DNA of 64,000 nt from Octopus vulgaris (taxonomy: Eukaryota). The notes below the pieces were generated by a model. The model was not told the origin of the DNA. It did not search any database and saw nothing but the letters and a program-made list of their open reading frames with translations. The position numbers and the translations under genes were made by a program. The stretch spans positions 113,832,001 to 113,896,000 of the forward strand of contig OX597823.1 of assembly GCA_951406725.2 (NCBI GenBank), given 5' to 3'. This document shows positions 357-52,705 of this stretch, in pieces (the stretch's first letter is position 1; every line of letters begins with the position of its first letter).

Positions 357-996
357 ATATAATTAATTAATAAGGGTGAGAGAATTATATACTAATCTAA
401 TAGTATACCTATTCAACACCAAGTGAGCCACATAGTGACCACTCTCTTATATTTATTTTTGTATAAAATATTATAATATGTTATAAAATATTATAATAAT
501 CCAGGTTTCTCGGGGCACTGCGCCACTTGGTGTTGAATAGGTATACTATTAAATTAGTATCTATTTCTCTCACCCTTATTAATTAATTATAATTATGCTG
601 CATTTATTTCTAAATGTAGTATCTGTTTCCGTGAAAGTTTGGCGCGCTGTTGGTAGGGGCATTTGAATTATAACGTCGGATGTAATCAATTGAACCACAC
701 GTGTATTTATCGTTATGGTAAAATCTGGCGTGTGATTGAGTGGATTTCATCCAGATAGTTTTGGCTGAGGAGCTACAAGTGAGTTATTGTGAGTAAAATT
801 ACATTTAATTCATTAATAGCGAAACAATTGTCCCAAAATAATCTGTATTTTTGTTATTTTTTATTTGCCCTGTTCGTGTGAGCTAACAATCGTACTGACT
901 TTCATGGGAAACATGTATTTTTGTGGTTGAAACCTATTGGATCTATTACTAGTGCTAGAGTGAGCAACATAGTGACCACTCTCTTATATTTATTTA
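357..996 (+). mobile_element. Penelope-like pseudo-LTR remnant with inverted and direct repeats, embedded in (AT)n
   Basis: ~68-bp inverted repeat (357-425 vs ~523-590). Direct repeat catagtgaccactctcttatatttattt at ~430 and ~968. Internal hammerhead motif; (AT)n on both flanks. Confidence 0.65.
759..838 (+). ncRNA. Minimal type I hammerhead ribozyme, canonical core
   Basis: ttttgg-CTGAGGA-gcta-(41 nt)-tagc-GAAAC-aatt-GTC-ccaaaa: 6-bp helix I, 4-bp helix II, palindromic ACAATTGT helix III, GUC triplet. Confidence 0.85.
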
Positions 997-1174
997 TATA
1001 TATATATATATATTAGAAAAAATGAGGTGATCAGATCGGATGGTTCATATTTGTAGATATTTATTTATATATTACATTTTTTTCATATATATCATATCAT
1101 TCAGATCATATCATTCGGATTACACATCGCTTTTCGAATTAGACGCAACACCTATTATATATTTATATATATAT

Positions 1175-1342
1175 TTTTTTCTCTTTTTTCTCTCCTTGTT
1201 TTTTTCTGTTTCCCTTTCTGTTGACGAGCGTAGGCTCGAAACGTAAAATACTTCTTCAATTCCTGAGCGTTATACTAATACATCTGTTTGTTTTGTACAC
1301 CACCTGTCTTCGTCTTTTGTTTTTTCGTGAATTCTCCCTATA
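1175..1342 (+). mobile_element. PLE-type pseudo-LTR fragment (same family as 50528-50700)
   Basis: High similarity to 50528-50700; flanked by (AT)n; carries a hammerhead-like motif. Confidence 0.7.
1214..1249 (+). ncRNA. Minimal hammerhead-like motif, A6U core variant
   Basis: ttt-CTGTTGA-c-gagc-gtag-gctc-GAAAC-GTA-aaa; palindromic ACGT helix III; short 3-bp helix I. Confidence 0.6.
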
Positions 1343-4300
1343 TACATATATATATATTTACATACTACATTATTCTTCCTCGCACCCTTAATTTACTGGT
1401 TTATTTTCTTTACTTACATACTGCCTGTAACGGTCTTAACTTTTACCTGTCATTCGAATATAATCGACCAATTGTAGAGAAGGACAGACTTTGGTCAATT
1501 TCATTGCAGACAACAGATGTTGGCCTCTGCAATATTTCAGTAAGTACACCATTATAAGAATCCGACGGTTTTGTTTTTGGATAAATATTAACTAGCCCTA
1601 TTTACGATATCATAAGTACTATTCTTTTTCTACACATATTGGTAATTCTTGTCTTATTTTAGTACTAACTTCATTTCAATACTATTCAAACACCCTGGGT
1701 CCCCTTTGTATAGAAATGACCGGTAAATATTTCCCTAGAACACTACTGGTTCACTCATTTGCCTATCGACTTCAAAACTCCACGCTGCCCGATACTATGG
1801 TTTTAATATATTGAGCCTCTTGGTTCCTTCTTCAGGCCCAGTTCTTTCCAATTCGCTCTTTCTTTTGTTTATTTTCTTTGTGAATTTGTATTCACTCTGC
1901 TGAAGCTCCATATACTAGATCGAATGTGCTATGAAAATGACGAATATTATTTTCGGAATTTCTTTCGCAAGCACCGACTAACATTGGAAGCGGAAACGGC
2001 GGAATGGAATGTTATGTAATGTCAGGTCATGTTTTGTATTAAGAAATAACCAACCGATGTGGCTCAATTTGTTTGTTTGTTGATTAAAAGTTTTCTTCTA
2101 TTTTGTGATTATATATATATATATATATATACATACTATATAGATAGATAAATAGATAGATACATACATAGATACATATCGTATATTAGCAAATGCAATG
2201 ACCAATCACATCGGACGCGCTATCTTTAATAAGAAGAGCAATATTCTAAACGTATTAGACATTTATTATTCATGAGAAGTAAGGGGGGAAATCAGCGGGA
2301 TGTAAGAAAGAGGAATAGCTACTGAAAAACTGGGTTTAAAGGAAAAGCATATATTTGTGGTATCAAATCATAAGCTGAAAGATTCACTATCATGTAGCAC
2401 AATCCTTTGCCTTCCTTCGTTTTGCCATTAAAGATGTATTGCTTCATTTTATTAGGCCATCAACATGGGTGACAAAGGCTTTGAGGTATTGATTGAAAGC
2501 TCTCTATTCGAAGACCGGATGAGTATGTTTCTTCCGGCCAACGTTACTTATGCGTTCATATGCTAAGAAACTACCGATGTGGCAGATTTCCATTGGTGCA
2601 GTAGATATGATTTTCCGTTCGCCACATGAAGGTGTCCGCCCTCTGTGGTTCTGAGAACTTCGTGTTAGACATACGCTCATAAGAGAAAGAGAGAGAGAGA
2701 GAGAAAGAAAGAAGAATATGAGGTGCAAAATGATCACAAATTATCAAGAAATAACGCTGGTGCGGTTTTAGTGACATACACATACATACACACATATACA
2801 TATAGTTACTTTAAAAAGGTTAAGCTTTTAGTCAATGTTCTTAAAAATATCATGTACAACAATTTCACTTATACCTTTCGAAGTTATTGATTTTATGTTG
2901 AGCGTCAACAGTACCTACCAATGATTTGATTGAAATATTTTCCCATATATGCAATCGTTGTTGCCGCGAGTAATAACAGAGTAAATTTTATGACAAATAT
3001 AATTTAAGTAGCAAAATGTCAGCTGTAAAGCATACGAACCATATACACAGCAGACAGTCGACCCTGAGAGACACTTCAGGAAAGACAGTAACACATGAAA
3101 TTAGTCATATCATACATAAAAATAAATTTCAAATAAATCTAGCTTCCATCTACCTGAATCTTAACTTTAACAATTCTTAGAATTTCAATAATGAAAAGAA
3201 TTCAAATAAACGTAGCATGAAGACAAATTTAAGTTAGCACACATTCTTACTACGAATTCACTTTACCTTTCCTGTAGAAACTGAGAAATGGCTAACATTT
3301 TACTTACTTTCTCATAGCCATGTGGTGCACAAAGAAAAAAATCGAATACAGCAGCCATAAATAAGCATTTCCTTAACCTATCTTTCTAACAATTTTCATC
3401 ACTGGTTAAAATCTCAAATTTCTTAATATGTGTCACCTGCTCCACGTAGTAAATTTTATTCTATAAAATATAACTATATTTATTTGTAATGAGAAAAACG
3501 CAGGCTACAATGGTTTTAGTTGGACTTGTCATTGCGAGTAAACAAAAAACACAATCTCGGCCTTTCCCATTTTCACTCGACGGAGTATCTGAGATGTGAG
3601 AGCTAGGACGGAAAGAGATGCATCTTCAAACCATCTTCAACTTAAACGATGTAACCTCGTGGAGAAGAGTTTCAATGTTAGTGACTTTTCTCCTCTAAAT
3701 TATACGCCTATACATACAGGCGCATGACACAAAAACAGATACATACATGCGCATGACACAAAAACAGATACATACACACTCATTGATACACACATTTTTA
3801 TTCAAGCGAAAGCAAAAGTAATGGATATGATTTTCTTTTTGTTTCTTGTTCTTTTCCTTCATTTAACTGATTTTATATAGCAGAAAAAGAAAACAAAACG
3901 AGCCAAGAACATAGAAGTGCTACACTATATCTTTTTTGGCTGGTGAATGTGTAAAATATAGTTCCAAAACACAAATATGTTATTTTGAATATAAATATAA
4001 ATGTCTGTATATATGTATGTTCATCCATTCTACTAATGAATATCGTGTAGGTGATGGGTGAAATAAGAACGTTTTTCAAGTATTTGGATCAAGTATTGAT
4101 TCTCGGCTTATTTCAATAAATTATCTCAAGACAGCAACAAGTAAAGGTTTAGCAAACATTGTGTAGAAATTGAAATGATCATGTAGTTATTGCTGTTCTC
4201 TTAATTAGAAACTATTCGAAGTTCTTAAATGTAAAACAAATATCTGTAATTCTGACACTAATATCTTCTCAAGGAAAATCTTTTTATTGTTTATTCATTT

Positions 4301-8850: not shown

Positions 8851-9245
8851 GACCCTTGAGCTACAATTAAAAACCGATTGCATCTTCATGGTTGACAAGA
8901 ATCTGAATGCATTTTAAAATATGATATTGATAATCACGTGCAGAATAAAGTTGCATCAAAAAATAATCTTTATATTTTGTAATAGCATATCTTGCCACTT
9001 AAAATCTTTGTAGTAAGGCCAAATGATATACGCAATTACTGCTATGAATAAAAATAGGTAGGTCAAAATTAAAATAGCTATAAACTGAATAAAGCAACAT
9101 TATAAGGAGAATTGTTAATCGAGGCAAACGGAAACCTCAATATGGTTCCAACCTCTTCTAGAAATTGCAGTTCACCTTCTTCCAACCTAACGCAAGTATT
9201 TCAGGATAATGCAAATTAGCTAATCCAGTTCGTGGTACACAATTT

Positions 9246-9478
9246 TAATTTTAACTAGCCACAAGGGGCTAAACACAGAAAGGACAAACATGGACATACA
9301 AACAGATCAAGTCGATTACATCGACCTCAGTGCGTAACTGGTACTTAATTTATCGACCCCGAATGGATGAAAGCCAAAGTCGATCTCGGTGGAATTTGAA
9401 CTCAGATTGTAGCGGCAGACGAAAAACGGCTACGTATTTCACCCGGCGTGCTAACGGTTCTGCCAGCTCGTCGCCTTC
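9246..9478 (-). mobile_element. tRNA-derived SINE family A, full length, with 18-bp TSD
   Basis: Minus strand starts GGCGACGAGCTGGCAGAACCGTTAGC (A-box-like) with B-box-like GAGTTCAAATTCC. Flanking direct repeat gttcgtggtacacaattt at 9228-9245 and 9479-9496. Confidence 0.9.
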
Positions 9479-9981
9479 GTTCGTGGTACACAATTTGGAT
9501 ACAGAATATGGAATGTTCATGCTATCGTTTCAGTAAGCATAATGAAAAGTATAAAAATAAATCATCATTGATATCAACCAGTGTAGTATTTGGTTACATT
9601 TATATGAATAGAAATATCATATCAATCACCCATAAACTCTATTGGCTATAGAGGGATATGCGGGACGTAATGAGTTTCATGAGATTAGCGTGTAAATCAG
9701 GGGCATACCCAGAGTATGTAGACATCAACCTTAGTTAGAGACATAGTGTGAGAGATACAAACATCTTTAGCGATTTGAATCTTTGTCACAGTCGTGATTT
9801 GTTATGGTTACTCTCTGCACAACAACAACGGTCAACAGGAGATTGATATATGTCGAAATGAAGATACTATTTTTAATAAGGAAAATTTAGAAATATAAAT
9901 ATCATCAATTACAGTAAAAATACTAGTGATTTCTGGTGATTAATGGGGCTTAGTCTCGTAAAACCATTCAATCATAAATAT

Positions 9982-10395
9982 TCTTTTCTACTCTAGGAAA
10001 AAGGGTAGAAACTTTGCGGGAATGGCAAGTCGATTAGTTCGATCCCAGCACGCAACTGGTATTTAATTTATCGACCTCGGAAGGATCAAAGGGAAACTCG
10101 ACCTCAGCGGAATTTGAACACAGCACCCGGCGTGCTAACATTTCTGCCACCTCGACGCCTTTATTCAATCATAAATATCCGTTTCTACTCTAGGAACAAG
10201 GCCCTAAATTTTGGGAGAAGCGGTGTCAGTCGATTAGATCGATCCCAGTACAGAACTGGTATTTAATTTATCGACCTAGATAGGATGAAAGGCAAAGTGG
10301 ACGTCGGCGGAATTTGAACTCAGAACGTAAAGATAGACGAAATGCCGTTCAGCATTTCGCCTGGCGTGCTAACCTTTCTGCCAGCTCGCTGCCTT
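9982..10395 (-). mobile_element. Two tandem family A SINEs (9982-10162, 10179-10395)
   Basis: Two SINE bodies bounded and separated by attcaatcataaatat at 9966, 10163 and 10396. Confidence 0.9.
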
Positions 10396-10493
10396 ATTCA
10401 ATCATAAATATTGAAAGAAAAATATGTTATTTTGCTACACAACAAATAGCATTTAAAACAGAGTATACATCCCATCCTACATGTGTCAATACT

Positions 10494-10860
10494 ATTCTTT
10501 TCTACTCTAGGCACAAGGTCCGAAATTTTCGGTGGGAGAGGTCCAGTAGATTATATCGACCCCAATACGCAACTAGTACTTAATTTATCGACCCAAAAAG
10601 GATGAAAGACAAAGTCGACCTCGGCGAAATTTGAACTCAGAACGTTAAGATAGACGAAATACCTATTTCTTTACTACCCACAAGGGGCTAAACACAGAGT
10701 ACAAACAAGGACAGACAAACTGATTAAGTCGATTATATCGACCCAGTGCGTAACTGGTACTTATTTAATCGACTCCCGAAAGGATGAAGGGCAAAGTCGA
10801 CCTTGGCGGAATTTGAACTCAGAACGTAAAGACAGACGAAATACTGCTAAGCATTTCGCA
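10494..10860 (-). mobile_element. Two adjacent or nested family A SINEs
   Basis: Two cores (tcgacc..aaaggatgaa..caaagtcgacc..ggcg.aatttgaactcagaacgt) at ~10590 and ~10770. The second has the ccacaaggggctaaacacaga tail variant also seen at ~9260 and ~38330. Confidence 0.85.
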
Positions 10861-13242: not shown

Positions 13243-13705
<463 letters not shown>

Positions 13706-14849: not shown

Positions 14850-15015
14850 TCAACTTTTTGGTAGGAGGTCAATAATTTCGGAGGAGAGCGTAAGTCGGTT
14901 TTGATTTCATTGGCCCCAGTGCTCAACTGGTACTCTTTTTATTGCCTCCGAAAAATGAAAGATTAAGTCGAACTCGGCGGAATTTGAAACTAGAGCATGA
15001 AGACGGGCAAAATGC
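14850..15015 (-). mobile_element. Family A SINE, degraded
   Basis: ccccagtgctcaactggtact...aagtcgaactcggcggaatttgaa core. Confidence 0.75.
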
Positions 15016-15046: not shown

Positions 15047-15669
15047 ATCCCCATGAATATGAGAAAAGTAGATAGGAGCATGATAAATAAAGTAACGCAA
15101 AAGATAAACACTGTCATACCATACTGCCAACATAACACAAACACGAAATCCTCTCCGAGCTATTGCTCTACTTGTTAAGGAGGAAGTACAACGAAAGAGA
15201 ACGAAAAAATGGTGGAGCAAAAAAGCATGATGGAACCGACGCATTGAGAGGGGCATCATGCGGGCAAAGCAAGATCTGGAAAAACCCGAAGAAAGCAACC
15301 TGCAGAGAATTGCGGTAACCATCAGGAGAGATCATGAGTAACCCAACGTTAGTGCGTATAGATATTTAGGGATTTTGGAGCTGAATGACATTCTACAAAG
15401 AGGAATGAAAGACAAGGTCAGCGAAGTTTATCAAAAAAGTTTGAAGATGGTGTTGAAATCCAACCTGAAGGCAAAAATTTTGATTACAGCAATGAATATC
15501 TGGGCAGATACGGTGGTCGGATATAGTGCGTCCATCCTCAACTGGACTAATGAGGAAATATAAACACTGGATAGAAGGACGAGAAAGCTGATGACGCTGC
15601 ATGGGGTGCTACACCTTAAAGCAAATGTAAACAGACACTATATCAAAAGAGAATGGAGGCTGAGGACTA
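15047..15669 (+). pseudogene. Internally deleted Dong/R4-type ORF remnant
   Basis: Starts directly after (TAA)n. N-terminal WNRRIERGI motif, then a jump to the RT thumb: YRYLGILE...MKDKVSEVY...AMNIWA...YSASILNWT...LDRRTRKLMTLHGVLH. Contains in-frame stops. Confidence 0.8.
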
Positions 15670-15735
15670 ATTTTACTGGTGAGTGTGTTAAATTATAAGG
15701 CACAAAAAAAAATTGCTCCCCCCAGACACAAAAGT
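15669..15735 (+). mobile_element. Short fragment of the PLE pseudo-LTR family found at 29848-30032
   Basis: attttactggtgagtgtgttaaattataaggcaca...ctccccccagacacaaaa matches the reverse complement of ~29895-29960. Confidence 0.65.
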
Positions 15736-15750: not shown

Positions 15751-17370
15751 TAGTTGCGGCCAAAATGTTCAGAAGGGCAATTTTTTCGTCAGAAAAGTAG
15801 ATATAATTTTTTATCAAAGTTGTTTTATATTCTATAATTTTCACAGACAATAAATACAATATTAATTGTTACTTTCTGAGATTTTGGGGGTAATTTAAGA
15901 GGATAATACAAAAGTTATGGATGATTTAGTGATTTACTGCAAAACCAAAGGCGGCCAAAATGATCAGAACGGTTGCTTTTACTCCGTATTTTAGTATATT
16001 TAACCGGCGAACTCTAATATTTTGAATTTGTTTACGTGACGGTTCGTTTACTAAACATTAGTAAGAATATTTGCAGTGTACTTTGTTAATATAATGCCAC
16101 TTACTCCGTTGCCAATTCGTCAGCAGATTATTAAGCTTCGAAGGAAGGATAATTTAAGTATTGGATCTGTTGCAAAGATTGTTAACAAGTCAAAAAGTGT
16201 TGTACACGGTATTCTTAAGGTCTACGATGATTGTGGTTCGTGTGAAGCAAGAAGGTTTACAGGTTGGCCAAGAAAAACGACCAAGAGAGAAGATCGTGAT
16301 ATGGTAAAGTTGGCTAAAAAGGACAGTTTTTAAAACTGCTGCTGCTGTTTCTCGGAAAATGAGCATTGTATTGAAGAAAACTTTATCTCGAAAAACTGTC
16401 TCGTCGTTTAGTTGAACATGACCTACAAGCAAGAGCACCTGCAGTGAAGCCACTGATCAGCTCCAAGAATAAAAAGTGTCGTGTTACCTTTGCAACCGAA
16501 CATGTGTTGTGGTCTCAAGAAAAATGGCGAACGGTGCATTTCAGTGATGAATCTAAGTTTATGCTATTTGGCTTAGATGGGAAAAGGTACGTTCGTAGAA
16601 AAGTAGGTGAAAAATTGTTGCCTAAATGCCTTAAGACTAGTGTTAAATTCGGTGGAGGAAGTGTCATGGTTTGGGGAATGATATCTGGAGATAGTGTGGG
16701 CCCTTTGGTGCGATTACATGGAAAGGTAAATGCAGGAGTTTATAAACAACTTGTAAAAGATCATGCCTTGCCTGTGCTGTGAAATTCAACTAAGCGACCA
16801 CCCATATTCATGCAGGACAATGCCCCATGTCACAAGGCTAAGGTTGTCATGAACTTCCTCAAGGCTGAAAAGATTATTGTTATGGATTTGCCAGCTCAAA
16901 GCCCAGATCTCAATCCTATTGAAAATGCGTGGAATATTCTAAGAGAACGTTCGAAAGCCAGAAATCCTAAAACAACTGAGCAATTATGGAATGCCCTTCA
17001 GGAAGAATGGAATAAGATCACCCAGCAAGAAATTGAAAAGGTAATTTCCTCATGCAGTCGAAGATGTCAGAGTGTGATTGAAGCTAAAGGGCTTCACACT
17101 AAATATTAAATAATTCCAGTATTCTCTGTCATTTTTTATTGTTTTGTTATTTTCTTCAACCATTCTGATCATTTTGGCCGCCATGGGTTTTGCAGTAAAT
17201 CACTAAATCATCCATAACTTTTGTATTATCCTCTTAAATTACACCAAAATCTCAGAAAGTAACAATTAATATTGTATTTATTGTCTGTGAATATAAAACA
17301 ACTTTGATAAAAACTTATACCTACTTTTCTGACGAAAACATTGCCGTTCTGAACATTTTGGCCGCAACTG
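15751..17370 (+). mobile_element. Tc1 (DD34E) DNA transposon with ~220-bp IR/DR terminal inverted repeats
   Basis: TIRs (c>t)agttgcggccaaaatgttcagaa... / ...ttctgaacattttggccgcaactg flanked by TA. Inner direct repeat gcggccaaaatgatcagaa at ~15951, inverted at ~17165-17182. Confidence 0.97.
16094..17109 (+). pseudogene. Tc1 transposase, disrupted
   Basis: HTH N-terminus MPLTPLPIRQQII..., then FSDESKF, KFGGGSVMVWG and QDNAPCH...SPDLNPIE (34 residues between D and E). Frameshifts near 16330 and ~16410; TGA at 16780. Confidence 0.95.
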
Positions 17371-17524
17371 TATATGTAAAATCATAATTTAGGATAGCTA
17401 AGATATACTTCCACGCTGGAAATAGCAGTCAAAACTTGACTCTAAAACCACATTAAATGTTCATTCAGTACCAGGAGAGAAGACAAAGAGACAAAATAAA
17501 CTAGCAAAATAAAATAACTGAATA

Positions 17525-17583
17525 ATTCCAGATCCCGGATTTCTGGCTCTGCATAAGAAATGCTTTGCCTTCATCAGTGGAAT
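17525..17583 (-). ncRNA. Minimal type I hammerhead ribozyme in an AT-flanked PLE-like fragment
   Basis: Minus strand: attcca-CTGATGA-a-ggc-aaa-gcat-ttctt-atgc-aga-gcc-a-GAAA-tccggg-ATC-tggaat; 6-bp helix I. Adjacent inverted repeat at 17585-17639. Confidence 0.75.
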
Positions 17584-17746
17584 ATACTCAGATAGCACAT
17601 AAATACAAATATATATATATTTATGTGCTATCCGAGGTATCTCTTAGACACCCTAAATTATAATTTTAAATAATTATTACTTTTGAAAGGTATTTATTCC
17701 CATGTTGGCCACCTGCTTAGATGGGTATTTAAATATCGACCTTATC

Positions 17747-17806
<60 letters not shown>

Positions 17807-18022: not shown

Positions 18023-18899
18023 ATATATATATATAGAGAGAGAGAGAAAGTGACAGAGAGAGATGATTATTTGTGTGTGACTCTGTGGGTTGTGTGTGAG
18101 TGTGTGTGTTTAAGTATGGTAGAACCCGAATATGATGAATTGTTTTCAATTCATTGCAATCTCCTCTTTCTTTCCATTACAATATTCCCAGTTATGTTTT
18201 CTTGACAAATGTTATTATGTAAGGAATAAAACTAGTATCATATCCATTGGCTGGGAGTGTTTCCTTTTTATATATATAGCACTAAGCCCCTGAATGTAAA
18301 TATGCTCTCCTAAAGTTAGATTGAAATTTGAATGTACAAACTTATTCTTTATCATTCACAATATATCATTCGTCATGATGACTAATAACATGTTTATCAG
18401 CTATATCTGGTTACATTAGAAGGATTTATATTAATCTAAAGTCCTCTATTTACAGTGAAATTGTTTCCCACGCCTACCGAAAACTATCTTCGTTATTGAT
18501 TAATAATTTACATTTCTTTCTCCATTTACGCTGTATTTCTTGTTGAACATTCATTAATCCGTACATATTTTTAGCTAAACTTCTTAATCATCAGAACGTT
18601 TCTAGTTAAATCTTCAGTAGTCAATAATCATTCAAAATGTTTGCGACACCACACTTGTCTCTCCGCCAGTTTGAGTGCCTGCTTCATCTAATTTGTTTAC
18701 AGTTAAGCATCAACACACACAAACACAAACACACATATGTATATACATGTGTGCGTGTGCGCGTTTGTGTATGTATGTGTGTGTACGTATGTAAGTATGT
18801 ATATATATTTCCAGTTAAAGTAGGTACTGCAAATTTTGGGTGAATACTTGATAAGTGTAAGCACCTGTATACGCCAGCTAGTGGCAGAGGTGAGAGGGT

Positions 18900-19180
18900 A
18901 TATATCAAATAAAATCAAAAACAGAACAGAAAGGATGTCACGGTACACGTGTTTCAAGCTTTATAATCGACCTGTTCTTACATCAGTGTATAATAGATAT
19001 AAATAATAGACTTTTCATAGTGTGATGTAACTCTTTGGAATAACAATGCATGCGGCTGAAGAGAGCTTTAAACCATGTTTTATATCAATTATACTCTGAT
19101 GTAAGAACAGGTCGTTTATAAAGCTTGAAACACGTCACCGCGACAGACTTTGTGTTCTGTTTTTGATTTTATTTTATATA
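18900..19180 (+). mobile_element. PLE pseudo-LTR with inverted partial copy
   Basis: ~18900-19003 is the reverse complement of ~19078-19180. A second family member lies at ~20090-20235. Confidence 0.75.
19051..19142 (+). ncRNA. Hammerhead ribozyme with long helix II loop
   Basis: tgcgg-CTGAAGA-gagcttta-(48 nt)-taaagctt-GAAAC-acGTC-a-ccgc. The inverted arm preserves GAAACACGTGTA-ccgtga (palindrome ACACGTGT). Confidence 0.7.
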
Positions 19181-20100
19181 TTTCCAGTTAAAGATAGATG
19201 CAGCAAATGCGTTAAAGCTAATTTCGAGTTTTCTCACACGGAGACACCTTACTTTCTCAGTTTCAATTTCCTCCACCATAGACGAATAGATTAATTGATT
19301 CTTTCAAATACTACCTGGGGAACAATGCAAAAGGTTTCCGTTTGCTGATAGTTTTAATTTTAAGCCGAAGCATTTGTTTTTGTCCCTTACTGGAAATAAT
19401 ATTCGCTAGAAATAGAGGAAGTATATTAAATGTTATGTTTTGCTGCTGATAACAAAATTATAACGTAACACTCGCAGTTGTGTCTCGTTCTTGACAGGAA
19501 AAGATAGAAATATTTGTTAGAGACAACAACCGTTGTTTTCCTCTCTCGCCACGTATTTATTTCAAGTCATCGTGGTAATGTTGTGTAACTTCAATATGTT
19601 AGCAGTAATTAGCGTCTAGTCACGTATTTAGTCACGCTATTGTGATTCACTGCAGGCACTTATTGTTTACTATATACGGAAAATACAGTTTCAGATTGAT
19701 TTAAATATGTTTCTTTCTATTCAATCAATTTTTAGAAAGTCTGAAGCTTCCATATTCTTGTATGATTTTTAATAAATATTTCATGTACGCTTTCACGTTC
19801 TATATATGTTTTATATATTATCTTGATAGAATAACAAAGGCCTATAAGCCACAAGAAATCGATTAATTGTTGTTGTTAGAAAATAAAACAATATGCTACA
19901 AACGTGACATATATCTGATATTTAGACAATGCATACAATGTAGATGTTATATATATTCAAACGGACATATCGTGGACTATCACATCAGAGTGTGTGATAC
20001 CAGAGTAACGGAAGGTATATCGCTTTTTTTTAATTATTATTTTGAGATAAAATATAGGCTTTTTATCACACCTTATATATATATATTGGACTAACAATGT

Positions 20101-20195
20101 TTGCGGCTGAAGAGAGCTTTAAACCATCTATTATATCAATAATACACTGATGTAATAACGGATAATTTATAGAGCTTGAAATACAGGTCCCGCGA
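20101..20195 (+). ncRNA. Hammerhead ribozyme, second copy of the long-loop family
   Basis: ttgcgg-CTGAAGA-gagcttt-(~50 nt)-agagctt-GAAA-tacag-GTC-ccgcga; 6-bp helix I. Confidence 0.7.
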
Positions 20196-20239
20196 TATCC
20201 TTTGTGTTCTGTTTTTAATTTATATTTTATATATATATA

Positions 20240-20376
20240 CCGGAGTAAGCACATAAATGTGAAACACGGTGGAAGAAAACAGTACTCCAATACCAGAGGT
20301 AGAATAATATGGTCTATTTAAAAGCAGCAGAAATATCACAAGAACTATTACTCAGAGTTTCACGTTCCCGTTCCTC

Positions 20377-20380
<4 letters not shown>
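20240..20380 (-). mobile_element. PLE-type pseudo-LTR fragment between (AT)n tracts
   Basis: 140-bp unique segment bounded by (AT)n, with a hammerhead-like motif at one end. Confidence 0.55.
20345..20380 (-). ncRNA. Hammerhead-like motif, U4C variant, helix I truncated
   Basis: Minus strand: gt-CCGAGGA-acg-ggaa-cgt-GAAAC-tctga-GTA-atag; near-palindromic ACTC-T-GAGT helix III. Confidence 0.55.
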
Positions 20381-29847: not shown

Positions 29848-30031
29848 TATTTCGTTTGCAAGATTCTTTATATGAGTTTATGTGTTGAAGCATATTTTGT
29901 CCTGTCTGGGGAGAGTCAGTTTCTGTGCCTTATAATGTAATACACTCCCCGGTAAAATTTCCACTTTTTCTTATTTATAATTTCCTAAAATTTTCGTTGC
30001 GTCTTGCAACCCTTTCAATAGTCTTGACTAT

Positions 30032-30308: not shown

Positions 30309-30692
30309 GCTTTTCGATTATAGGCACAAGGCCTGCAATTTTTTGATTGGCGTAAGTCGATTAAATCGACCCCAGTGCTTAACTGGTATTTATTTTATCG
30401 ACCACGAAAGAATGAAAGGTGAAGTCGACCACGGTGGAGTTTGAACTCAGAACGTAAGAATGGGCGAAATGCCGCTAAGCATTTTGTTCCGATGTGCTAA
30501 CGATTCAGCCAGCAAACAGCTTCAGCCATGTCTTTAATAATGGTTCCAAACTTTTGGCACAAGTCCAGCAGATTCGGAAAAGGGGGATAAACCGATACCA
30601 TCGACCACTGGTGTTCAGTGGCACTTATTTTAGTCACCCCTGAAGGATGAAATGCAAAATCGGCTTCAGCAGAATTTGAACTCAGAACTTGA
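30309..30692 (-). mobile_element. Two family A SINEs; the first has a 15-bp TSD-like repeat
   Basis: Cores at ~30400 and ~30640; cca(c/t)gtctttaataa at ~30294 and ~30526. Confidence 0.85.
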
Positions 30693-31218: not shown

Positions 31219-32021
31219 TTCATTGTTTCTTTCAATCTGTTTCCATTTCTTGCCGAGTGTCTTTTTGTCATCTTGGTCTGAGAAACATACTGTACACATT
31301 GGTAGGCCATTAAAATAAACACACCAGATTGTTCATTTACAGAGAGAAAAATAAAAAAGAAAATAAAGGGGAAAAGGAAAGAAAATTCACAGCGACAATG
31401 CTCTTCTCAATACGTTTGACATACCAGTTAAGATGATATTTTGTACTTCCTGCAAGGATCGTTCTTATAAAATTTTCAATTCCTTTTTTGATCATTCCAA
31501 GTGCTCTTACAATCACTGTCATTATAACTGTCTTGAGATGCCGCATCTTCTCGATTTCTGAGCTTATCAGATTCTTATGCGGAGATATTATGGTCACAGA
31601 ATATGCTCATGTCAATCAAAATACAGAATTTATTGTTTTGGTCTTTCACAACAATATCTGGTTCATTTGCTTTGTTGGTCCAATCTGTGTACATACTGCG
31701 AAGTCCCAAAAGATAGTTACCTTTTCTCCCTCAGTTACAGCCTAGTGGTGGTGCTTGTACAATTTGTCGACAGTTTTGTCGACAGGAGCTATCACCTAAC
31801 AACTACAGATTAGGTGGTTCACTATTTCTATCCCATCGTTGCAGTATCAGTGCTTTCGGTCTAAACCATTTTTCATTACACTTGCTGGTAAATAAGCTCT
31901 GATCTTGGGCAGCCAAGATAAAAACCTTCTCTCTCTGCTTTTAGCCCTGAGCTCAGTAGCCACTGACGGGTATGCTTCTGATCTACACCAGCTTGTTTGC
32001 TATTGGCTACATATCTGCCAT
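31150..32021 (-). mobile_element. 5'-truncated Dong/R4 element A (same family as 1-271)
   Basis: Minus strand: GRY...VDQKHTRQWLLSSGLKA..EGFILAAQDQSL, WDF, LIDMSI; matching 3' UTR; (TAA)n tail at 31150-31217. Confidence 0.85.
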
Positions 32022-32700
32022 TTATTATTATTACTCTGAAAGTCTCTCGGATACTTCTTAATTACTGGTTGTTCTTTACTTGTAAACAGACAATACCAAA
32101 TCACCAAAGGTTTCAAGTAGTGCCTTCTCCTGTAACTCAAAGTGACAATACTTTCCTTAGAATGCAAGCTGTATTCAAAAATGCTGTCTTCTGGATCACT
32201 TTGTGCCTGACAGCAGCACCAGCGCCAATATTCTTAAAATGTTTTGCAAAGCTCTTGAAAACTGCTCCTAATGCTCCAAATACCGCTGGTATCACCACTA
32301 TTTTCCTCATGCCCCATAACTTTCCTGTCTCGTCCTGCAGTGGCCGGTATTTCTCACTATTTTCTGTTTCCTTGCATTTCACCCTCGAATCGCCTGGTAT
32401 TGCAACATCTATTATCCTTGCTTCTTCGTCATCTTTATGCATGATCACGGTATCTAACCGTCTCGCCTCTATGACTTGGTCACACTCTATGTTAAAAAAT
32501 CAGAGTGTTTTGTAATGTTCATTTTCCATTACTCCCTCTGGCTTGTGTTCATACCACTGTTCGACTCTCTCGAGGTTTACTTTACCGCAAAACAGCCAAT
32601 ATACATATATGGTAACATTGTCGCATCTCCATTTGTATTCGTGTTTGGACATATCTAGCCACATAGTCGTGTCTCCTTTTGTATTCGCGTTCTTATCTTA
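32022..32700 (-). mobile_element. 5'-truncated Dong/R4 element B (restriction-like endonuclease domain)
   Basis: EYKRRHDYVAR, then ORF 32137-32448 IIDVAIPGDSRV...EKYRPL...LWGMR...VFGALG...QKTAFLNTACILRKVL. Short TAA tail at 32022-32032; TAA/CAA tract at the 5' flank. Confidence 0.9.
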
Positions 32701-37751: not shown

Positions 37752-38324
37752 TCTTTACTTTTCCAGAAAAGAACGAAACCTTTCGGTGTAACATCGGTAC
37801 ATAACTGTTTGTCTCAAAAAAATACAAAAAAAACTATTCAATATTTTCATGTAGTTTCAGTGCAAATATTTCAGTGAAATGTTTCATGGGGTGTAATTAA
37901 TCTTCGCAATTTCGCTTTTTGCCTCACTGTGTGAGAGGCGTTTAATCAAACATTTCAATATTTGTAGCAAAATCAGTTACTATCCGCTCCACAAGTTTTT
38001 TACGTACTCCAACCTATGCTAGTGACAGTGATAGATTTTGTTCTTCATTCAGGTACATTTCCCATGGCCTCACTTGATATGATTTGTTGGGGGATTGGCT
38101 GCTCTTTCTATTCTCTATGTATTAGATTAGGACATCGAGTAAAGCTCCCTGTTTTTATACAGTTGATTGATTATGTGGTATGAATTCTTTGCGGACATAC
38201 ACGCACATGCACACATGTATATACACACATGTATATACACACATGTATATACACACATGTATATACACACATTCATACCTGCAAACGCACACACACGCAT
38301 TCATTTATATATGTATTTATTTAT

Positions 38325-38532
38325 TTACTACTCACATGGGGCGAAACACAGAGGGGACAAACAAGGACAGACAAACGGATTAAGTCGATTAATTGGTACT
38401 TAATTTATCGACTCCGTAAGGATGAAAGGCAAAGTCAACCTCGGCTGAAATTGAACTTAGAACGTAATTGCAGACGAAATACGACAACGCATTTCGCCCG
38501 GTGTGCTAACGTTTCTGTCAGCTCGCCGCCTT
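38325..38532 (-). mobile_element. Family A SINE
   Basis: Full core ending cagctcgccgcc on the plus strand (the SINE 5' end), followed by a short duplication of that end. Confidence 0.9.
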
Positions 38533-40804
38533 AAATTCTGTCAGCTCGCCGACTTGAATGAATGTGATTCTACATATTTGATGAAGGGGTTGAAATGAGA
38601 AGTGAAGTCTTCACAGTATTGCTTACTGCTGCCTTCCGAGATCAATAAATAAAGCCAGTCAAATGCTGTGATCGATTTAATAAAATGTTTTCTATCGTAG
38701 TAATGTCACCTTGTTCTTATGTTAAAGATTATTGTTGATGAAGATTTGTAGACGATTAGAGAGTTGGAAAATTTCTTTGTGGTATGAGATTCCTACTTTA
38801 CGTTCGAATCTCACATCTTAGCGTGTTGAAATCAGCATTTCATCCTACGGGATAGGAAAATTAAGTTACCAATCACGTACTGGAGTCGATGACGTCATCA
38901 AACCCCTCTCCGACATCTATTAGTATTCAACAGAATAAATATTTACGTGAGCCATATACGGTTATTTGAAGTAGGGGCTAAAATTCATAGAACTCCACAT
39001 GACCCCTCATTGCTTTGTCAATATATTAAGGATATCAAATATTACAAAATATTATAAACAACCGAAACACTGATGGTACAAATGACGTCAACAACTTCCT
39101 CATTTTTTCTATATCACTTTTATGCCTAAAATCCTAATTTTTCACCATTACAAATAAGCCCACCCACACGCACACCCACGAACCACCTAAACGTGAGGCC
39201 CTTCTGGGAATAACTAGAACAGTTAAAGCAGTAAAGAACTCGTTTACAAATTCCAGCACTTAAAAATCAAGAAAGAATACGTTATATAGTGTAAATACAC
39301 CACAAAACATGATGCGGTTTCAGCTGGAATGAATTTGATTAGTGGTTAGGTCAATTGATATTTCACGAAACAGCCATTACCACAATTAATCTCTTTAACC
39401 AATACGGAAAAATGTACCTCAGAATGGTCGCTTGAAGGGCTCGAAATAACTGCCAATTTTCTCTCTGATTCTATCATACTATATTCAAAAGCAAGGATAC
39501 ATAAGATAACAATATCCTATATACACCAAATTTTAATATTTATAAAACAAAATAAAGGAAATAGGTTGGTCGTGAATTAAACGCCAATAATTGAAGGTTT
39601 GCTCTCAAATCTAGTACAACAACCACGACACCGATAATGATTCCTTCATTCCAGACTAAACTAGCGCTGTGGTTTCTTTCTCTTACTCGACATACATACT
39701 TTCATTTGCCATCGGAGTGCAACCATGCTTAACTAACATTTTCTACTCGATCACTGCCTACCTAATATTTAGTTAAAATTATTATTTCTTTTATTTATAT
39801 ATATCATTTCTAATTTGCAGTTTTGTCATAATTCTATGCAAGTTTTCACATCCATCCACAAACACGGTTACATTCATACACATAAAAAAACACATATGCA
39901 GGAATACAGGAACATACATATACATGACGGGATAACGCATACTTAAATATGTCGATCAACACGATGCTTGATCTGAAAATAGTTGTTCAAAGCACTTTGC
40001 AGTGGAATCGATTACGGAGCCAATTGATTGCAAAGTCCTCTTCTTGATCACATCATTTTGCCTACATAACTGTATGAGTGAAGTTGAAAATTCAGTGAAA
40101 CTACAATATAAAATTCTAACTGTCAAACCAGATATATTTTACAATAAGTTGCTGCTAATTATAGAGTACTTCCAGATGTAAATTAAAAAGAAAAATTTCA
40201 AAGGAATATCAATAGAAAATATTCTTTTCTAAAATTGAAACATATAATAATAATTCTGGACGATAATGTCTTAGAAAATAATACTAAATGTACTATTTTA
40301 ATGTAAAACAAAGAATATAATAGCAGAGTAACTTAATGTACATTCAGAATGTTCTGGGACAAAAAAATAAGTTGCCCATTAGAGAATATTTATTTCTAAA
40401 AGTATATTTAATCTGTTCCGTCATTTCACCTTACAATATAAAAGTTAAAATATAGTAATTATATGTCTACGCATTTTCGCTCTACAGTTATGCCCATGTG
40501 TGAATATGATACTCTATGCGTATGTGCAATGTGTGCATCTGTGTCTCTTTTCCTCTTTATATATCTGTCAATCAATCTGAGTGTGTGTGTATATATATAT
40601 ATTTTTTTTTTTCTTTCCTCCATCTTATTCTCTATTTGCATCACATCGAAACTAAGTATGACTTAACTTTTCCTCTCACACCGTCTCCTATGAAGGGATA
40701 TTATTTATTATTAATTAATATCCTAGAAACAGCAGTAAGACCTTCTATCTATAAATGCTCTATTATATATACAGCCTTGGTCTTTTTTACCACATTACGC
40801 AACA

Positions 40805-40978: not shown

Positions 40979-40983
<5 letters not shown>

Positions 40984-42148
40984 TTATCGCCATACTAATA
41001 TGGCATTCTCATAAAAATAAGAAAAAAGCTGTCCGATTATTAGCTCCATGAGGCCATCGCCTTAAGTTAGCTATTTGATACACAAACTGTATCCATATAA
41101 CCTTCGAAGAAGGGAGGTCAGTCGCTCCACACTACTTGACCGGCAGCTACAGACGCGTTTCGGGGTATTGCCCCTTTTCAATGCAGCGTAGCCAGCCAGT
41201 AGGTGTCGCTTCCGACAATCTCTGTTCGATGGTTTTATTTACCTAGTTTCGGTGGAATACATCCACTTGTTTTCAATAATAGAAATATTAAAATAACTAA
41301 GTCTCTCTAAAAGAGAACAGCGGCAGCGTTCCCGGAAAATAATAGTTATCGCCATACTAATATGGCATTCTTATAAAAATAAGAAAAAAGCTGTCCGCTT
41401 ATTAGCTCCATGAGGCCATCGCCTTAAGTTAGCTATTTGATACACAAACTGTATCCATATAACCTTCGAACAAAGGAGGTCAGTCGCTCCACACTACTTG
41501 ACCGGCAGCGACAGACGCGTTTCGGGGTATTGCCCCTTTTCAATGCAGCGTAGCCAGCCAGTAGGTGTCGCTTCCGACAATCTCTGTTCGATGGTTTTAT
41601 TTACCTAGTTTCGGTGGAATACATCCACTTGTTTTCAATAATAGAAATATTAAAATAACTAAGTCTCTCTAAAAGAGAACAGCAGCAGCGTTCCCGGAAA
41701 ATAATAGTTATCGCCATACTAATATGGCATTCTTATAAAAATAAGAAAAAAGCTTAGAGATACTTAGTTATTTTAATATTTCTATTATTGAAAACAAGTG
41801 GATGTATTCCACCGAAACTAGTAAATAAAACCATCGAACAGAGATTGTCGGAAGCGACACCTACTGGCTGGCTACGCTGCATTGAAAAGGAGCAATACCC
41901 CGAAACGCGTCTGTAGCTGCCGGTCAAGTAGTGTGGAGCGACTGACCTCCCTTGTTCGAAGGTTATATGGATACAGTTTGTGTATCAAATAGCTAACTTA
42001 AGGCGATGGCCTCATGGAGCTAATAAGCGGACAGCTTTTTTCTTATTTTTATGAGAATGCCATATTAGTATGGCGATAACTATTATTTTCCGGGAACGCT
42101 GCCGCTGTTCTCTTTTAGAGAGACTTAGTTATTTTAGTATTTCTATTA
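40979..42148. mobile_element. Young 362-bp tandem repeat (about 2.1 copies) plus an inverted ~1.1 copy; retrozyme/PLE pseudo-LTR array
   Basis: tagttatcgccatact recurs at 40981, 41343 and 41705 (period 362). 41754-42148 is the reverse complement of the unit. Few substitutions between copies; long (AT)n on both flanks. Confidence 0.92.
41146..41187 (-). ncRNA. Minimal type I hammerhead ribozyme with U3-A8 core (further copies at 41508-41549 minus and 41876-41917 plus)
   Basis: gctgca-TTGAAAA-gggg-caata-cccc-GAAAC-gc-GTC-tgtagc: 6-bp helix I, 4-bp helix II, palindrome ACGCGT, GUC triplet. Confidence 0.88.
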
Positions 42149-43083
42149 TATATATATACATATATATATATAAACATATATATATATATATATATTGCCT
42201 GTTGTTTGGTTATTATCTCTACTTTTAAGAGCAACAACAAATGCAAATTTACTCAACACCACTCAATCTTAAGTTCACTTTAAATATTTCCTGGTCCCAT
42301 CACTGTGTAACGCAATGATAGATACCAATGCAGTAATTCCAGTGCGTGCACCTGTATGTAGATGCGTGTGTTGACGTGTGCATGTATATATGTTCGAACA
42401 GATGCAAGTATGTAATCTTTAAAAGTATATAATTCACAGTGCCATGAGAAAAGGTGCTTATTATGTGTTTAGAAGAATTTAAAAATTATTAGACATTAAT
42501 AAATTATAAACGGAACGATATACTGGATATTGGCAGTAAAAGAGAATAAAATCTAGAGTCGTCACTTTTGGAATTCCAGTGAAAATATGGTCCGACAAAA
42601 ATTAACAGCTGATAATAAACAATATTTCCCATCACTTTACTTTCAGATTACTGATTTATCAGTTAACATTTTAACGAATCTAAACAGAAATAAAGCAGTT
42701 CCCCAAATCAATGACGATATTATTATATATCTAAAATTACGGATCAAATACGTTTTATCTGGTGACGTGTAGAATATAGGAAGTATTAGGTAAGCGATAA
42801 ATTACGTGTCCTTTTGGACAGAGAAACGAAATATAGCTGCGTCGAAGGTTGGAGGGACTGATGAGTTAAACAAATGTATGGATTTATACTGGAAAGTGTG
42901 TGATAAATCTGTGCAATGAGCATGCCACATCAAATTGTATCACTTCAATATGGGCATTGTGACACCCAGTTGTGGCTCCCAGAATGTATAAGAAGAGGTA
43001 AAGAAAACTGCTTGTATAAGTTGGTACTCATCTGCGTTAAAAAATTATATATATATATATATATATATACATATATGTATATA

Positions 43084-45224: not shown

Positions 45225-45395
45225 TGGCGAACTGACAGCATAGTTAGCATGCCAAACAAAATGCGTATCGGCATTTCTTCGGTCCTTACGCTGTGCGTTT
45301 GAATTCCGCCGGGGTCAGTTTGCCTTTCATCCTTTTGGGGGTCGATAAATTAAGTATCAGTAGCACCGAGGTCGGGGTAATCGACTAACCCCTTA
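45225..45395 (+). mobile_element. Family A SINE
   Basis: ggcgaactgacagcatagttagcatgcc...gaattccgccggggtc...gcctttcatcc...gggtcgataaattaagta. Confidence 0.85.
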
Positions 45396-48388: not shown

Positions 48389-48419
<31 letters not shown>

Positions 48420-49010: not shown

Positions 49011-49071
<61 letters not shown>

Positions 49072-49272: not shown

Positions 49273-49273
<1 letters not shown>

Positions 49274-50527: not shown

Positions 50528-50700
50528 ATTTCTCTCTTTGTTTCTCTCCTTGTTTTTTTTTCAGTGTATATTTCTGTCGAAGAGCGTAGGCTCGAAACGT
50601 AAAAGACTTTTTCTATTCCTGAGCGCTGTACTAATACATTTGTTTGCTTGAACTCCACCTGCCTTCGTCTTTTGTTTATTTTCGTAAACTTTCCCTTTAT
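50528..50700 (+). mobile_element. PLE-type pseudo-LTR fragment (family of 1175-1342) with hammerhead-like motif at 50571-50605
   Basis: ttt-CTGTCGA-a-gagc-gtag-gctc-GAAAC-GTA-aaa; (AT)n flanks. Confidence 0.7.
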
Positions 50701-50742
50701 ATATATATATATATTTACATACATATATACATATTTACATAC

Positions 50743-50802
<60 letters not shown>

Positions 50803-51525
50803 GTTTAAATATTTGTTGTGCAAGATTTTTTTTTATGTGAAGTCGTGTGTTGAAACAGATATTGTTATATTTCGGAATGGTCATATTGCCAGTTTAGCCA
50901 ATAAAAACACACGCACTATATATTTGGTGTTATTTTGCTTCAGTGATATTTATTTTTTACATTAATCTTAATCTTATTTCGGCCAAAGTTCTTTCGTCAC
51001 ACTCCTGTGACCGCATCAGTGGTCCTTTGTTTTCTTCTCACTTACTTGTGTCTCTCCTTACTAACCGTCAGCCATTTTATATTTCTATTGTATGTCTTCA
51101 TTTGCGCATGTTTATATCTCTATGTGCGTCTATGTTTATTTAGTGTGTGTGTGGGGGGGATGCCTGTAATATTTGTATCTTCTGTTTATATACATTCTTG
51201 TAATTTGTATTTTGTTTTTGTTGTTGTTGCTTTTGTTCTAATTTTGTTCATGTGTTTACATCCACCCATTATTATCATTACATATGCTTGTATGTATGTA
51301 TAACAACAATATTAGTAATAATAATAATAAATCTAATGGAAAAAAAAAAAAAAAAAAAAGGAATATACATATACATATATATATATACATACACATACAT
51401 ATACATATATATATATATACATATACACACACATATATACACATATACATATACATATATATAGATATTCATTTCTATTTCTTTAATTACCTGTGTATTT
51501 ATTATGTTTGCAGGATCCACTATTG

Positions 51526-52541
51526 TCATATGTTGTGGTGTGCGCTATTGCTCCATTCTAGTTTTCTATTCAGGCTAGGTTTATTTTCTATTATATGTGT
51601 AGCTTCTGTAATTTGTCTAATTGTTGCATCTGTTCTATGTGTGGACAATATCTTAATCTCTATGTTATTGATTGATCCCCCGTGTTCTTGTTCGGCGTGT
51701 TGGTACAGAATCGATGAGCTTTTACCTTCCTTGAGTTGTCTCCAATGTTCATTCACCCGCTCACCAATGCTTCTTGCAGTTTCCCCTACGTATGTTACTG
51801 TCTTGTTACTGCATCGTCCCTCTATACATCTTATACTATAGACCACATTTCTGGCTTTACAGTTCGTTTGTGGGCTAAATCTACATACAGTGCAATAGTT
51901 ATCCGTACAGAGAGTTCTACTAAAAGGATAGCTTCTACCAATTATAGATCTGATAGGGTTGCCTGGCTTTTCAACAACCTTAATTCTTAGTTTAAGTTTA
52001 TCTAGGGTCCTTCTAAAGCGGTACGCTAGTTCACCTCCAGGGGTGGTGTCAACGAACATGACACTCTGGTATTTATGGCTATCATACCAAGAGTTGGCCT
52101 TCCCTATTTTCTTTTTGTCCTTTCTATAGTGTTCCATGACTTGTTCCTATAGAGTGGGCAAATCCCATTCCTATCATTACATAATATATTATCAAATTTC
52201 TTCATGGCTCCTTTGTATACTCTGATCCTTTCTTTATGGCTGTAACCTGAGAACTGCATGCGGTGAATGAAGTACTGTATGTGTCTTTTTAATTCTGTAG
52301 GCTCGCACATGCGTGACACATTTCTCATTATTCTGACGAGGTCTGCCATCAAAATATTGAATTTGGCATTGCCCGCAATGGCTGAGTTCCGGTGGATCAG
52401 GTATTTTGAGGCCATAGGTTTTGCATAGTATGAATGAAGGATTTGGGTTTTATTTTTCACAATTTCTAGCCAGAGTTCAGTGTCTAGTACTGGTAGTCTA
52501 TGGTTGGGGTGTTTAGTGGGGTAGTCTATTGTGACCTTAAT
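51526..52541 (-). pseudogene. PLE RT thumb, Cys-rich linker and GIY-YIG endonuclease; one frameshift
   Basis: DYPTKHPNHRLPVLD...YYAKPMAS...SGYS...PLYR, frameshift near 52110-52120, then C-x4-C-x2-C-x7-C and NVVYSIRC...YVGETARSIGERVNEH...RQITEA...KPSLN. Confidence 0.93.
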
Positions 52542-52660
52542 ACTAAATAAACATAGACGCACATAGAGATATAAACATGCGCAAATGAAGACATACAATA
52601 GAAATATAAAATGGCTGACGGTTAGTAAGGAGAGACACAAGTAAGTGAGAAGAAAACAAA

Positions 52661-52705
52661 GGACCACTGATGCGGTCACAGGAGTGTGACGAAAGAACTT
52701 TGGCC
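52661..52705 (+). ncRNA. Hammerhead-like motif in the PLE pseudo-LTR (sense copy at 50981-51025, minus)
   Basis: ggacca-CTGATGC-g-gtcac-aggagt-gtgac-GAAA-gaa-CTT-tggcc; A9C deviation in both copies. Confidence 0.6.

Follow-up and report, generated by a model that had tools for sequence, protein, structure and literature searches.

Hammerhead-like motifs in coding and non-coding repeat families of Octopus vulgaris and their probable copying by Penelope-type enzymes

Introduction

Hammerhead ribozyme motifs of the minimal type I are known from the pseudo-long terminal repeats (pLTRs) of metazoan Penelope-like elements (PLEs) and from tandem animal retrozymes that lack long terminal repeats (non-LTR retrozymes). 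Here, motifs of this kind are described in a 64,000-nt stretch of the Octopus vulgaris genome (assembly GCA_951406725.2, contig OX597823.1, positions 113,832,001 to 113,896,000 of the forward strand), referred to as the window, whose own numbering is used throughout. The motifs lie near the 3' ends of ten repeat families, nine of them designated A to I, among which B and I are coding PLEs. We consider it highly probable that all ten are copied by Penelope-type enzymes from RNA that is uncut or re-joined at the hammerhead.

The pLTR hammerheads of metazoan PLEs (PMC4209133) share with the octopus motifs a short palindromic helix III, an extra base after A9, the G10.1-C11.1 pair and the U3-A8 variant of the core, and they likewise occur as many families per genome, as dispersed single truncated copies and as opposite-strand pairs 100-700 bp apart. 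Counts obtained there with a different descriptor were approximately 2,000 plus 1,300 in Schistosoma, 4,000 in coelacanth and 9,000 in Xenopus, compared with at least 35,431 in nine octopus families. The changes A6U and A9C, fixed in the octopus coding families, do not appear in the available sections of that paper. Endonuclease-bearing (EN+) PLEs of the Neptune/Nematis type (PMC8557442) and the Anolis Poseidon element PAc (PMC11167929) resemble the octopus elements in one open reading frame (ORF) that combines reverse transcriptase (RT) with a GIY-YIG domain at the C terminus, in partial tandems, an inverted truncated copy, an optional tail from two RT starts and a microsatellite bias; as far as these texts go, families B and I differ from them in uncompensated core changes in nearly all copies and in an end spacing of ~30-135 nt. 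The Neptune-like resemblance of B and I consists of a cysteine-rich linker only.

Animal non-LTR retrozymes (PMC7229834; 10.64898/2026.07.22.740005) share with families A, H and D a tandem, low-GC, non-coding organisation with one type I hammerhead per unit, and mobilisation by PLEs has been proposed for them as well. Two ends, inverted arms and a TA target, the footprint of PLEs, can be seen directly in the octopus retrozymes, unlike in those published, to judge from the available text. The schistosome element Sm-alpha (PMC6765202) is, like family C, a short interspersed element (SINE)-like sequence that joins an RNA polymerase III-type head to a hammerhead; according to the available description, family C differs in never being tandem in 30 loci, in having its head at a fixed 5' end and in its PLE-type ends.

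Minimal PLE hammerheads, their family diversity, the U3-A8 core, retrozymes and the microsatellite bias are already published. No report on octopus hammerheads or on A6U and A9C variants was found in literature searches that were mostly at title level and had supplements outside their scope. A 2017 survey by Lunse and co-workers reportedly collected ~150,000 PLE-linked variants across many genomes, and these may include A6U or A9C.

Detection of hammerhead-like motifs

A first-pass annotation, made from the letters of the window, had listed 15 sites and claimed about nine minimal hammerhead families. A type I hammerhead-like motif was present at all 15, running from helix I through the core box, helix II, GAAA and a short helix III to H17 and helix I again, and the sites do belong to nine families: A (759), B (1214 and 50571), C (13299 and 13606), D (17525), E (19051 and 20101), F (20345), G (29985), H (41146, 41508 and 41876) and I (50981 and 52661). 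Missing from the list were a partial minus-strand motif of family E near 18959 and the worn motif of a tenth family (40687-40737), which bring the total to 17 copies of ten repeat families in 64 kb (Table 1).

Motifs were searched with a descriptor that permits one core change, a U3-A8 pair and an extra base after A9. Since it was designed after the window sites were known, an unselected sample of 599,900 nt (60 stretches of 10 kb picked by round coordinates) provided the fair test. Seven of the 15 sites pass the descriptor (759, 13606, 17525, 29985, 41146, 50981 and 52661); the other eight are worn or truncated copies whose family relatives pass. At a score of at least 12, the window gave 7 matches against a mean of 0.58 (maximum 5) in 40 local dinucleotide shuffles, and at a score of at least 20 it gave 4 against none in any of the 40. 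The 600-kb sample gave 36 matches at a score of at least 16 (mean 1.4, maximum 4 in 12 shuffles), comprising by our own row count 14 canonical cores, 13 U3-A8 cores and 9 with another core change; at a score of at least 20, it gave 25 (shuffles 0.17). A match rate in shuffled DNA similar to that in real DNA, a refuting outcome named with the first listing, was not seen.

Across the DNA analysed, 31 hammerhead families were found, which bears out the large, diverse population of autonomous and non-autonomous PLE and retrozyme families that had been suggested. One representative of each was compared with 223 shuffled descriptor matches for features that the descriptor does not require. The pair C15.2-G16.2 occurs in 23 of 31 representatives (12 of 223 shuffled matches) and G10.1-C11.1 in 21 of 31 (17 of 223), and N7 shows all four letters across the representatives. 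The helix III palindromes noted at first reading are enriched as well, perfect ones of at least 6 nt being present in 14 of 31 families and 16 of 223 shuffled matches; the palindrome ACACGTGT, on the other hand, belongs to family E and is intact only in the inverted copy absent from the first list. In one six-member family outside the window, five pairs are altered on both sides, and its covariation score was equalled by 1 of 500 shuffles.

A chance origin of the motifs in DNA rich in AT and microsatellites has next to no probability. Shuffles do give a mean of 6.25 matches at a score of at least 10 in 600 kb, and the descriptor was tuned on the window; against this stand the 25 versus 0.17 matches at the higher score, the enriched hallmark pairs and the fixed place of the motifs in repeat families and PLE terminal repeats. 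A chance origin is excluded, also by the exact counts given below, whose reversed controls all gave 0. An Rfam scan of the window returned no hammerhead family among the best 150 of 335 rows, which were microsatellite look-alikes, nearly all of them to miRNA models, and a cross-family MAFFT alignment of the motifs was too poor for a covariance model.

Structure of the insertions

For each family, the 30 best loci were taken, a set biased to copies that resemble those of the window. In every family, the 3' ends are fixed at one or two places that lie ~55-310 nt past the motif, and the 5' ends are ragged. Two alternative fixed ends are present in A, C, D, E, H and I (in family I, used in 13 and 17 of 30 loci). 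Upstream inverted arms were found, per ~30 loci, in 7 copies of A, 1 of B, 19 of C, 8 of D, 9 of E, 15 of F, 21 of G, 20 of H and 11 of I, and each arm of the window insertions of A, D, E, H and I stops at a different one of the two ends. Copies start downstream of the predicted cut site and cross that site unbroken. A template of uncut or re-joined RNA, which this suggests, would fit the finding that unprocessed RNA is the main substrate in vitro; hammerhead cleavage was dispensable for insertion there (PMC11167929, in the part available).

The motifs had been described as lying mostly in repeats embedded in (AT)n. This holds for seven of the nine families, which end mostly at (TA)n (72-96% versus 5.8% background): A 14 of 17, B 27 of 30, D 18 of 25, E 27 of 30, F 23 of 26, H 25 of 26 and I 28 of 30 loci, where the 0-5 copies per family that had no identified end or continued as an array are omitted. 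It does not hold for C (1 of 30) and G (10 of 26), past whose ends (TA)n is not favoured. The (AAT)n at 13441 and the (TA)n inside family D units, by comparison, are parts of the elements and not targets. The tandem unit of A and H has no TA run at the junction, so the TA run found there belongs to the target rather than to the element.

An alternative is that the non-coding families were moved by the enzymes of long interspersed elements (LINEs) or amplified at the DNA level. The SINE-like head of family C, the long tandem arrays of family A and the abundance and recent activity of LINEs reported for O. vulgaris (PMC13282606, main text) are compatible with this. The insertions, however, have neither a poly-A nor a simple-repeat tail but two fixed internal ends, their inverted arms stop at the other fixed end, and (TA)n lies at the A and H junctions where the tandem unit has no TA run; we therefore regard this alternative as very improbable.

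Copying by Penelope-type enzymes, the reading we prefer, would proceed as follows. The GIY-YIG endonuclease would nick (TA)n or other AT-rich DNA, and the RT would begin inside the RNA at one of two sites, usually stopping early or folding back, so that most copies would retain only the hammerhead-bearing tail. The octopus insertions show the tail pattern that in PAc has been traced to two internal RT starts (PMC11167929, available part); two fixed ends with inverted arms also agree with the PLE pattern of PMC8557442. A template that is uncut or re-joined would allow a core lesion to ride in a spreading family. The density of motifs would follow from the tail-retaining copies together with the at least 31 families. 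The tandem retrozymes A, D and H and the tRNA-headed family C would travel as passengers on the PLE route.

Several points weigh against this account. In family B, one end only is fixed, and just 1 of 30 loci has an inverted arm. For E, F and G, the DNA analysed yielded no coding parent, F and G having been followed only within the fetched loci; an upstream walk from family E extended over at least 1.3 kb without an ORF or circle closure. Single motifs are not unusually stable folds (z -3.8 to +0.5), and in the energy model the double-hammerhead dimer comes within 1 kcal/mol of the best fold for F and is clearly worse for B, C, D, E, G and I. The covariation set consists of six related sequences, and the helix covariation proposed as a check is upheld by its score but not by the count of pairs altered on both sides, which was reached by 43 of 500 shuffles. 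Finally, family H is overcounted in the unselected sample, perhaps by chance (5 exact matches versus 0.27 expected), which makes the totals given below rough.

Coding elements

Families B and I are assigned, from their sequences, to the 3' ends of coding PLEs. Both contain a single ORF with RT, a cysteine-rich linker and C-terminal GIY-YIG; 187 homologues were found at E≤1e-10. Pfam matches are weak and below the cut-off (GIY-YIG, E 9e-4; RVT_1, E 1e-3 and 3e-4).

Nine of ten fetched stretches contained a family I frame that is 1,310-1,312 codons long and encodes RT and GIY-YIG, with hammerheads ~4.59 kb apart to either side; direct pLTRs with a hammerhead on either side were seen in L373, L374, L376, L377, L378, L381 and L382. 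The family is young: many copies are 100% identical, all 150 scored matches of the RT are 95-100% identical, and an O. vulgaris database protein is 98% identical to the frame. In L374 (2275-6213, minus strand), the pLTR contains the start of the frame, ~135 nt beyond the hammerhead box, and within the frame a long Asn/Ser-rich insert precedes the RT.

In a randomly chosen stretch, the family B motif was found at a distance of 689 nt behind a GIY-YIG frame. This frame has 17,470 candidates, of which the best 150 are 94-100% identical. In 26 of 30 loci, a family B hammerhead follows a GIY-YIG frame at 278-811 nt, with U6 and an intact G5 in 25 of the 26, and in L438 a complete unit is present, in which two A6U motifs enclose a frame of 1,119 codons. 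The listing of B among non-coding repeats was mistaken, as B is the tail left by truncation of a coding PLE that is very abundant. Two further catalogued families lie behind GIY-YIG remnants (L034; L291, by eye), as does a worn motif in L322 (by eye). From L322:8379 downstream (minus strand), the PLE 3' untranslated region (UTR) carries several copies of a CRE-like word, TGACGT, and CCAAT-like words ahead of a worn U3-A8 hammerhead; these words are possibly a pLTR promoter.

Non-coding elements

Families A, D and H are classified as tandem non-coding retrozymes with one hammerhead per unit (535 nt in A, ~500 nt in D and 362 nt in H). Their own 3' part is repeated upstream in 22 of 30 (A), 29 of 30 (H) and 10 of 29 (D) loci; a full D tandem is present in L179, and 12 units of A in a row, containing no long frame, in L337. 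Contigs of presumed-RNA runs cover H and most of an I unit but, as contigs reveal neither ends nor strand, were rejected as expression evidence, and the H head-to-tail joint was also present in a DNA run. A further tandem family with a 353-nt unit was observed at L336:5245-5899; a relative in L333 is distinguished from it by two compensated helix II pairs and has U4C.

Family C combines a tRNA-like head with an internal (AAT)n, the hammerhead and ends of the PLE type. Among 31 B-box matches, all 18 complete heads start at the same word; the sequence upstream is a fold-back in 13 and unrelated flank in 5. The A and B boxes and the arms of the head were read by eye; ARAGORN reported a tRNA in 0 of 12 loci and Rfam gave no match. 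Instead of a LINE-type tail, family C has two fixed internal ends (17 of 30 and 13 of 30 loci) followed by unrelated flank, and a tandem arrangement was found in 0 of 30 loci. Judged by its title alone, a 1994 paper of Ohshima and Okada describes octopus tRNA-derived retroposons, one of which may be family C. In a recent annotation of O. vulgaris repeats, 30 Penelope families are given as recently active and 893 SINE families as unclassified, with no mention of ribozymes in its main text (PMC13282606); some of these families may be PLE passengers.

Sequence variation of the catalytic core

Core letters of families F, G, H and I were tallied by our own reading of the first 100 copies listed for each. 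Canonical cores predominate among the descriptor matches, from overlapping loci, of A (81 of 81), C (30 of 41), D (32 of 36) and E (33 of 37). A compensated U3-A8 core is present in 92 of 100 copies of G and in 100 of 100 of H. Family F (1,602 copies) has U4C in 89 of 100, and as the 10 copies with U4 agree in frequency with CpG loss at position 7 (11 of 100), its master is taken to be C4. In family B, U6 occurs in 14,446 of 14,955 motifs, and rare sister subfamilies have the canonical A6; position 7 is C in 20, T in 8, A in 6 and G in 4 of the A6U copies analysed. Family I (3,205 copies) has C9 in 96 and A9 in 3 of 100, and C9 in all 92 descriptor matches in the fetched loci. These variants are family-wide and not due to decay. 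The cores do differ by family, as the first-pass annotation had noted; high variability as such is already published (PMC4209133), and the A9G at 29985 proved to be private decay rather than a family core.

The motifs of B, F and I lack conserved core bases and are classed as hammerhead-derived, not canonical. A6U and A9C are predicted to cripple self-cutting in B and I. A9 forms a sheared pair with the general base G12; the C9 of family I could pair with G12 and block it. Changes at A6 reduce hammerhead activity (PMC3088659, in the part available). Helix I has only three pairs in G, and the helix III palindrome is imperfect in I. In the energy model, no two-strand fold is better than the double-hammerhead dimer for A (-45.6 kcal/mol) and H (-34.7 kcal/mol); the proposal that the palindromes support dimeric folding is borne out, in these predictions, for only two of nine families.

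B and I probably cut slowly or never, and yet spread. The presence of crippled cores in recently spreading coding families hints that cutting is not needed to jump, and the free N7 beside a fixed U6 in family B suggests that the fold is still selected. A and H are predicted to be cut as double hammerheads between adjacent units; tandem retrozymes are described as cutting and forming circles (PMC7229834, available part), from which tandem passengers would gain, and A and H keep predicted competent dimers. A strict division into retrozymes with intact cores and PLEs with altered ones was considered but dropped in view of the U4C of F, the tandem U4C of L333 and the compensated core of the PLE-linked L034; intact cores in tandem passengers are a tendency.

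The function of hammerheads in PLEs has been termed unclear (PMC8557442, available part). The motifs with A6U (B), A9C (I) and U4C (F) may be working ribozymes that are slowed and aided by a PLE protein or a metal ion, slow cutting being kept as it spares uncut template; we hold this to be a real possibility, at somewhat less than even confidence. In family B, position 7 is free, position 6 is U and the helices are paired, as if the fold were selected; naturally occurring A6C and U4C variants still have low activity (PMC3088659, PMC7151607), and the Anolis PLE hammerhead cuts only with its protein (PMC11167929), as stated in the available parts of these papers. Set against this are the imperfect helix III of family I, whose dimer, modelled with only three helix I pairs, came out ~9 kcal/mol less favourable than two monomers, the unimpaired insertion in vitro by catalytic mutants (PMC11167929, available part) and the existence, though rare, of canonical A6 sister subfamilies.

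The variant motifs may also be dead relics carried by a successful master copy, so that their spread would be uninformative on function. Family I, where 3 of the first 100 listed copies still keep A9, is indeed so young that one master lineage could fix any change; but many B subfamilies differ at N7 and yet share U6 and intact helices, which is unexpected for a neutral relic, and we think this explanation unlikely. A non-catalytic role and a relic state, taken jointly, are for the variant motifs marginally favoured over the opposite. Doubtful, and offered tentatively, is the wider proposition that the octopus has the densest known hammerhead load (~1 per 10 kb), that B and I, the two coding Penelope families with the most recent success here, reached thousands and tens of thousands of copies with crippled cores while keeping the fold, and that the PLE hammerhead is mainly structural or protein-binding, self-cleavage being needed only by circle-making tandem passengers. 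The young coding A6U and A9C elements, their canonical sister subfamilies and the intact-core tandem passengers constitute natural matched pairs for asking whether PLE hammerheads have to cut.

Copy number

Exact genome-wide counts in the 2.80-Gb assembly were A 708, B 14,955 (14,446 plus 509), C 7,848, D 203, E 371, F 1,602, G 5,295, H 1,244 and I 3,205. Their sum of 35,431 is a floor, as exact patterns miss worn copies; every reversed control gave 0. Scaling by the share of exact copies in unselected DNA, which is noisy with denominators of 1 to 16 exact copies, gave ~40,000 copies of B, ~47,000 of C, ~21,000 of F, ~15,000 of G, ~13,000 of I and ~1,700 of H. A sample-based figure of ~32,000 for family H was dropped after the exact counts. 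The 600-kb sample contained 64 copies by homology to all families (bootstrap 45-85) and 8 by descriptor only, or ~120 per Mb; without the seven family H copies, the density is ~108 per Mb. The excess of family H was noted at loci L286, L288 and L305. The genome load is likely to be 2-3 x 10^5 motifs, as extrapolated from these sequence counts, of which ~1.3-1.6 x 10^5 would pass the descriptor. In the axolotl, with a genome ten times larger, up to 120,000 retrozyme copies are reported (10.64898/2026.07.22.740005; PMC7229834, available parts). A motif every ~10 kb may mean many latent RNA cut sites in introns and UTRs.

The window, which lies ~4.3 Mb from the end of a 118.2-Mb contig, has about twice the genome-average density. 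Among the matches listed, those of B and C are denser near the start of contig C1, and 14 exact B motifs occur in 0.76 Mb of DNA from the loci of other families (~4 expected). Hammerhead families share (TA)n tracts in the window: E with F at 20086-20380 and B with I at 50530-50860.

Features of the window

Table 1. Hammerhead-bearing insertions in the window.
Feature	Position	Strand	Remarks
Family A retrozyme insertion	362..992	+	Roughly one 535-nt unit, permuted; short inverted arm 362-425; flanked by (TA)n on either side
Family A hammerhead	758..839	+	Core canonical (CUGAGGA); helix III ACAAUUGU; cut predicted after 832
Family B, coding PLE 3' end	1175..1340	+	Box 1218 with A6U; helix I worn
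Family C inverted arm	13246..13359	-	Worn hammerhead, box 13339
Family C main arm	13397..13704	+	3' half of tRNA-like head; B-box-like word from 13416; internal (AAT)n
Family C canonical hammerhead	13606-13651	+	Predicted cut after 13646
Family D retrozyme fragment	17400..17750	-	Unit ~500 nt; canonical core 17577; A.A at first helix II position; predicted cut after 17531
Family E inverted arm	18831..19002	-	Hammerhead 3' half near 18959; absent from first-pass list
Family E copy	19035..19181	+	Canonical box 19056; long helix II; helix III worn
Family E copy	20086..20234	+	Box 20107; helix III worn; tail to tail with family F
Family F 3' end	20245..20380	-	U4C core, box 20378; helix II of three pairs with GNRA loop; helix I lacks its 5' strand, cut off by (TA)n
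Family G 3' end	29850..30030	-	U3-A8 core, box 30018; private A9G; three-pair helix I
Tenth-family worn hammerhead	40683..40741	+	Motif 40687-40737; absent from first-pass list
Family H retrozyme	40979..41754	-	2.1 tandem units of 362 nt; U3-A8 hammerheads, boxes 41181 and 41543
Family H inverted arm	41755..42149	+	Box 41882, one helix II mismatch; stops at second fixed end of the family
Family B 3' end	50530..50697	+	A6U hammerhead, box 50574; (TA)n tract common with family I insertion
Family I 5'-truncated PLE	50802..52541	-	Broken C-terminal ORF with GIY-YIG domain, ends 51526; 3' UTR; A9C hammerhead, box 51019
Family I inverted pLTR arm	52542..52827	+	100% complementary over 286 nt; A9C hammerhead, box 52667; ends at other fixed end

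Other repeats were also noted. A Tc1/mariner-type DNA transposon at 15753-17368 has inverted repeats (15753-15975 and 17157-17368, 91%) and a transposase frame (16375-17109) interrupted by a stop, and a second, older Tc1-like transposase remnant lies at 28940-29542 on the minus strand (Pfam HTH_Tnp_Tc3_2, E 0.002, below the cut-off). Positions 15669-15703 match 29925-29959 in inverted orientation. An abundant short repeat family, clustered and partly tandem, occupies 9244-10860, 14888-15015, 30304-30688, 38316-38533 and 45226-45392, with a period of 200 at 9966-10323; it gave no hammerhead match. Retrotransposon-like frame pieces were found at 1-188, 31227-31414 and 32137-32499, and the frame lying immediately left of the window (L032) is 275 codons long.

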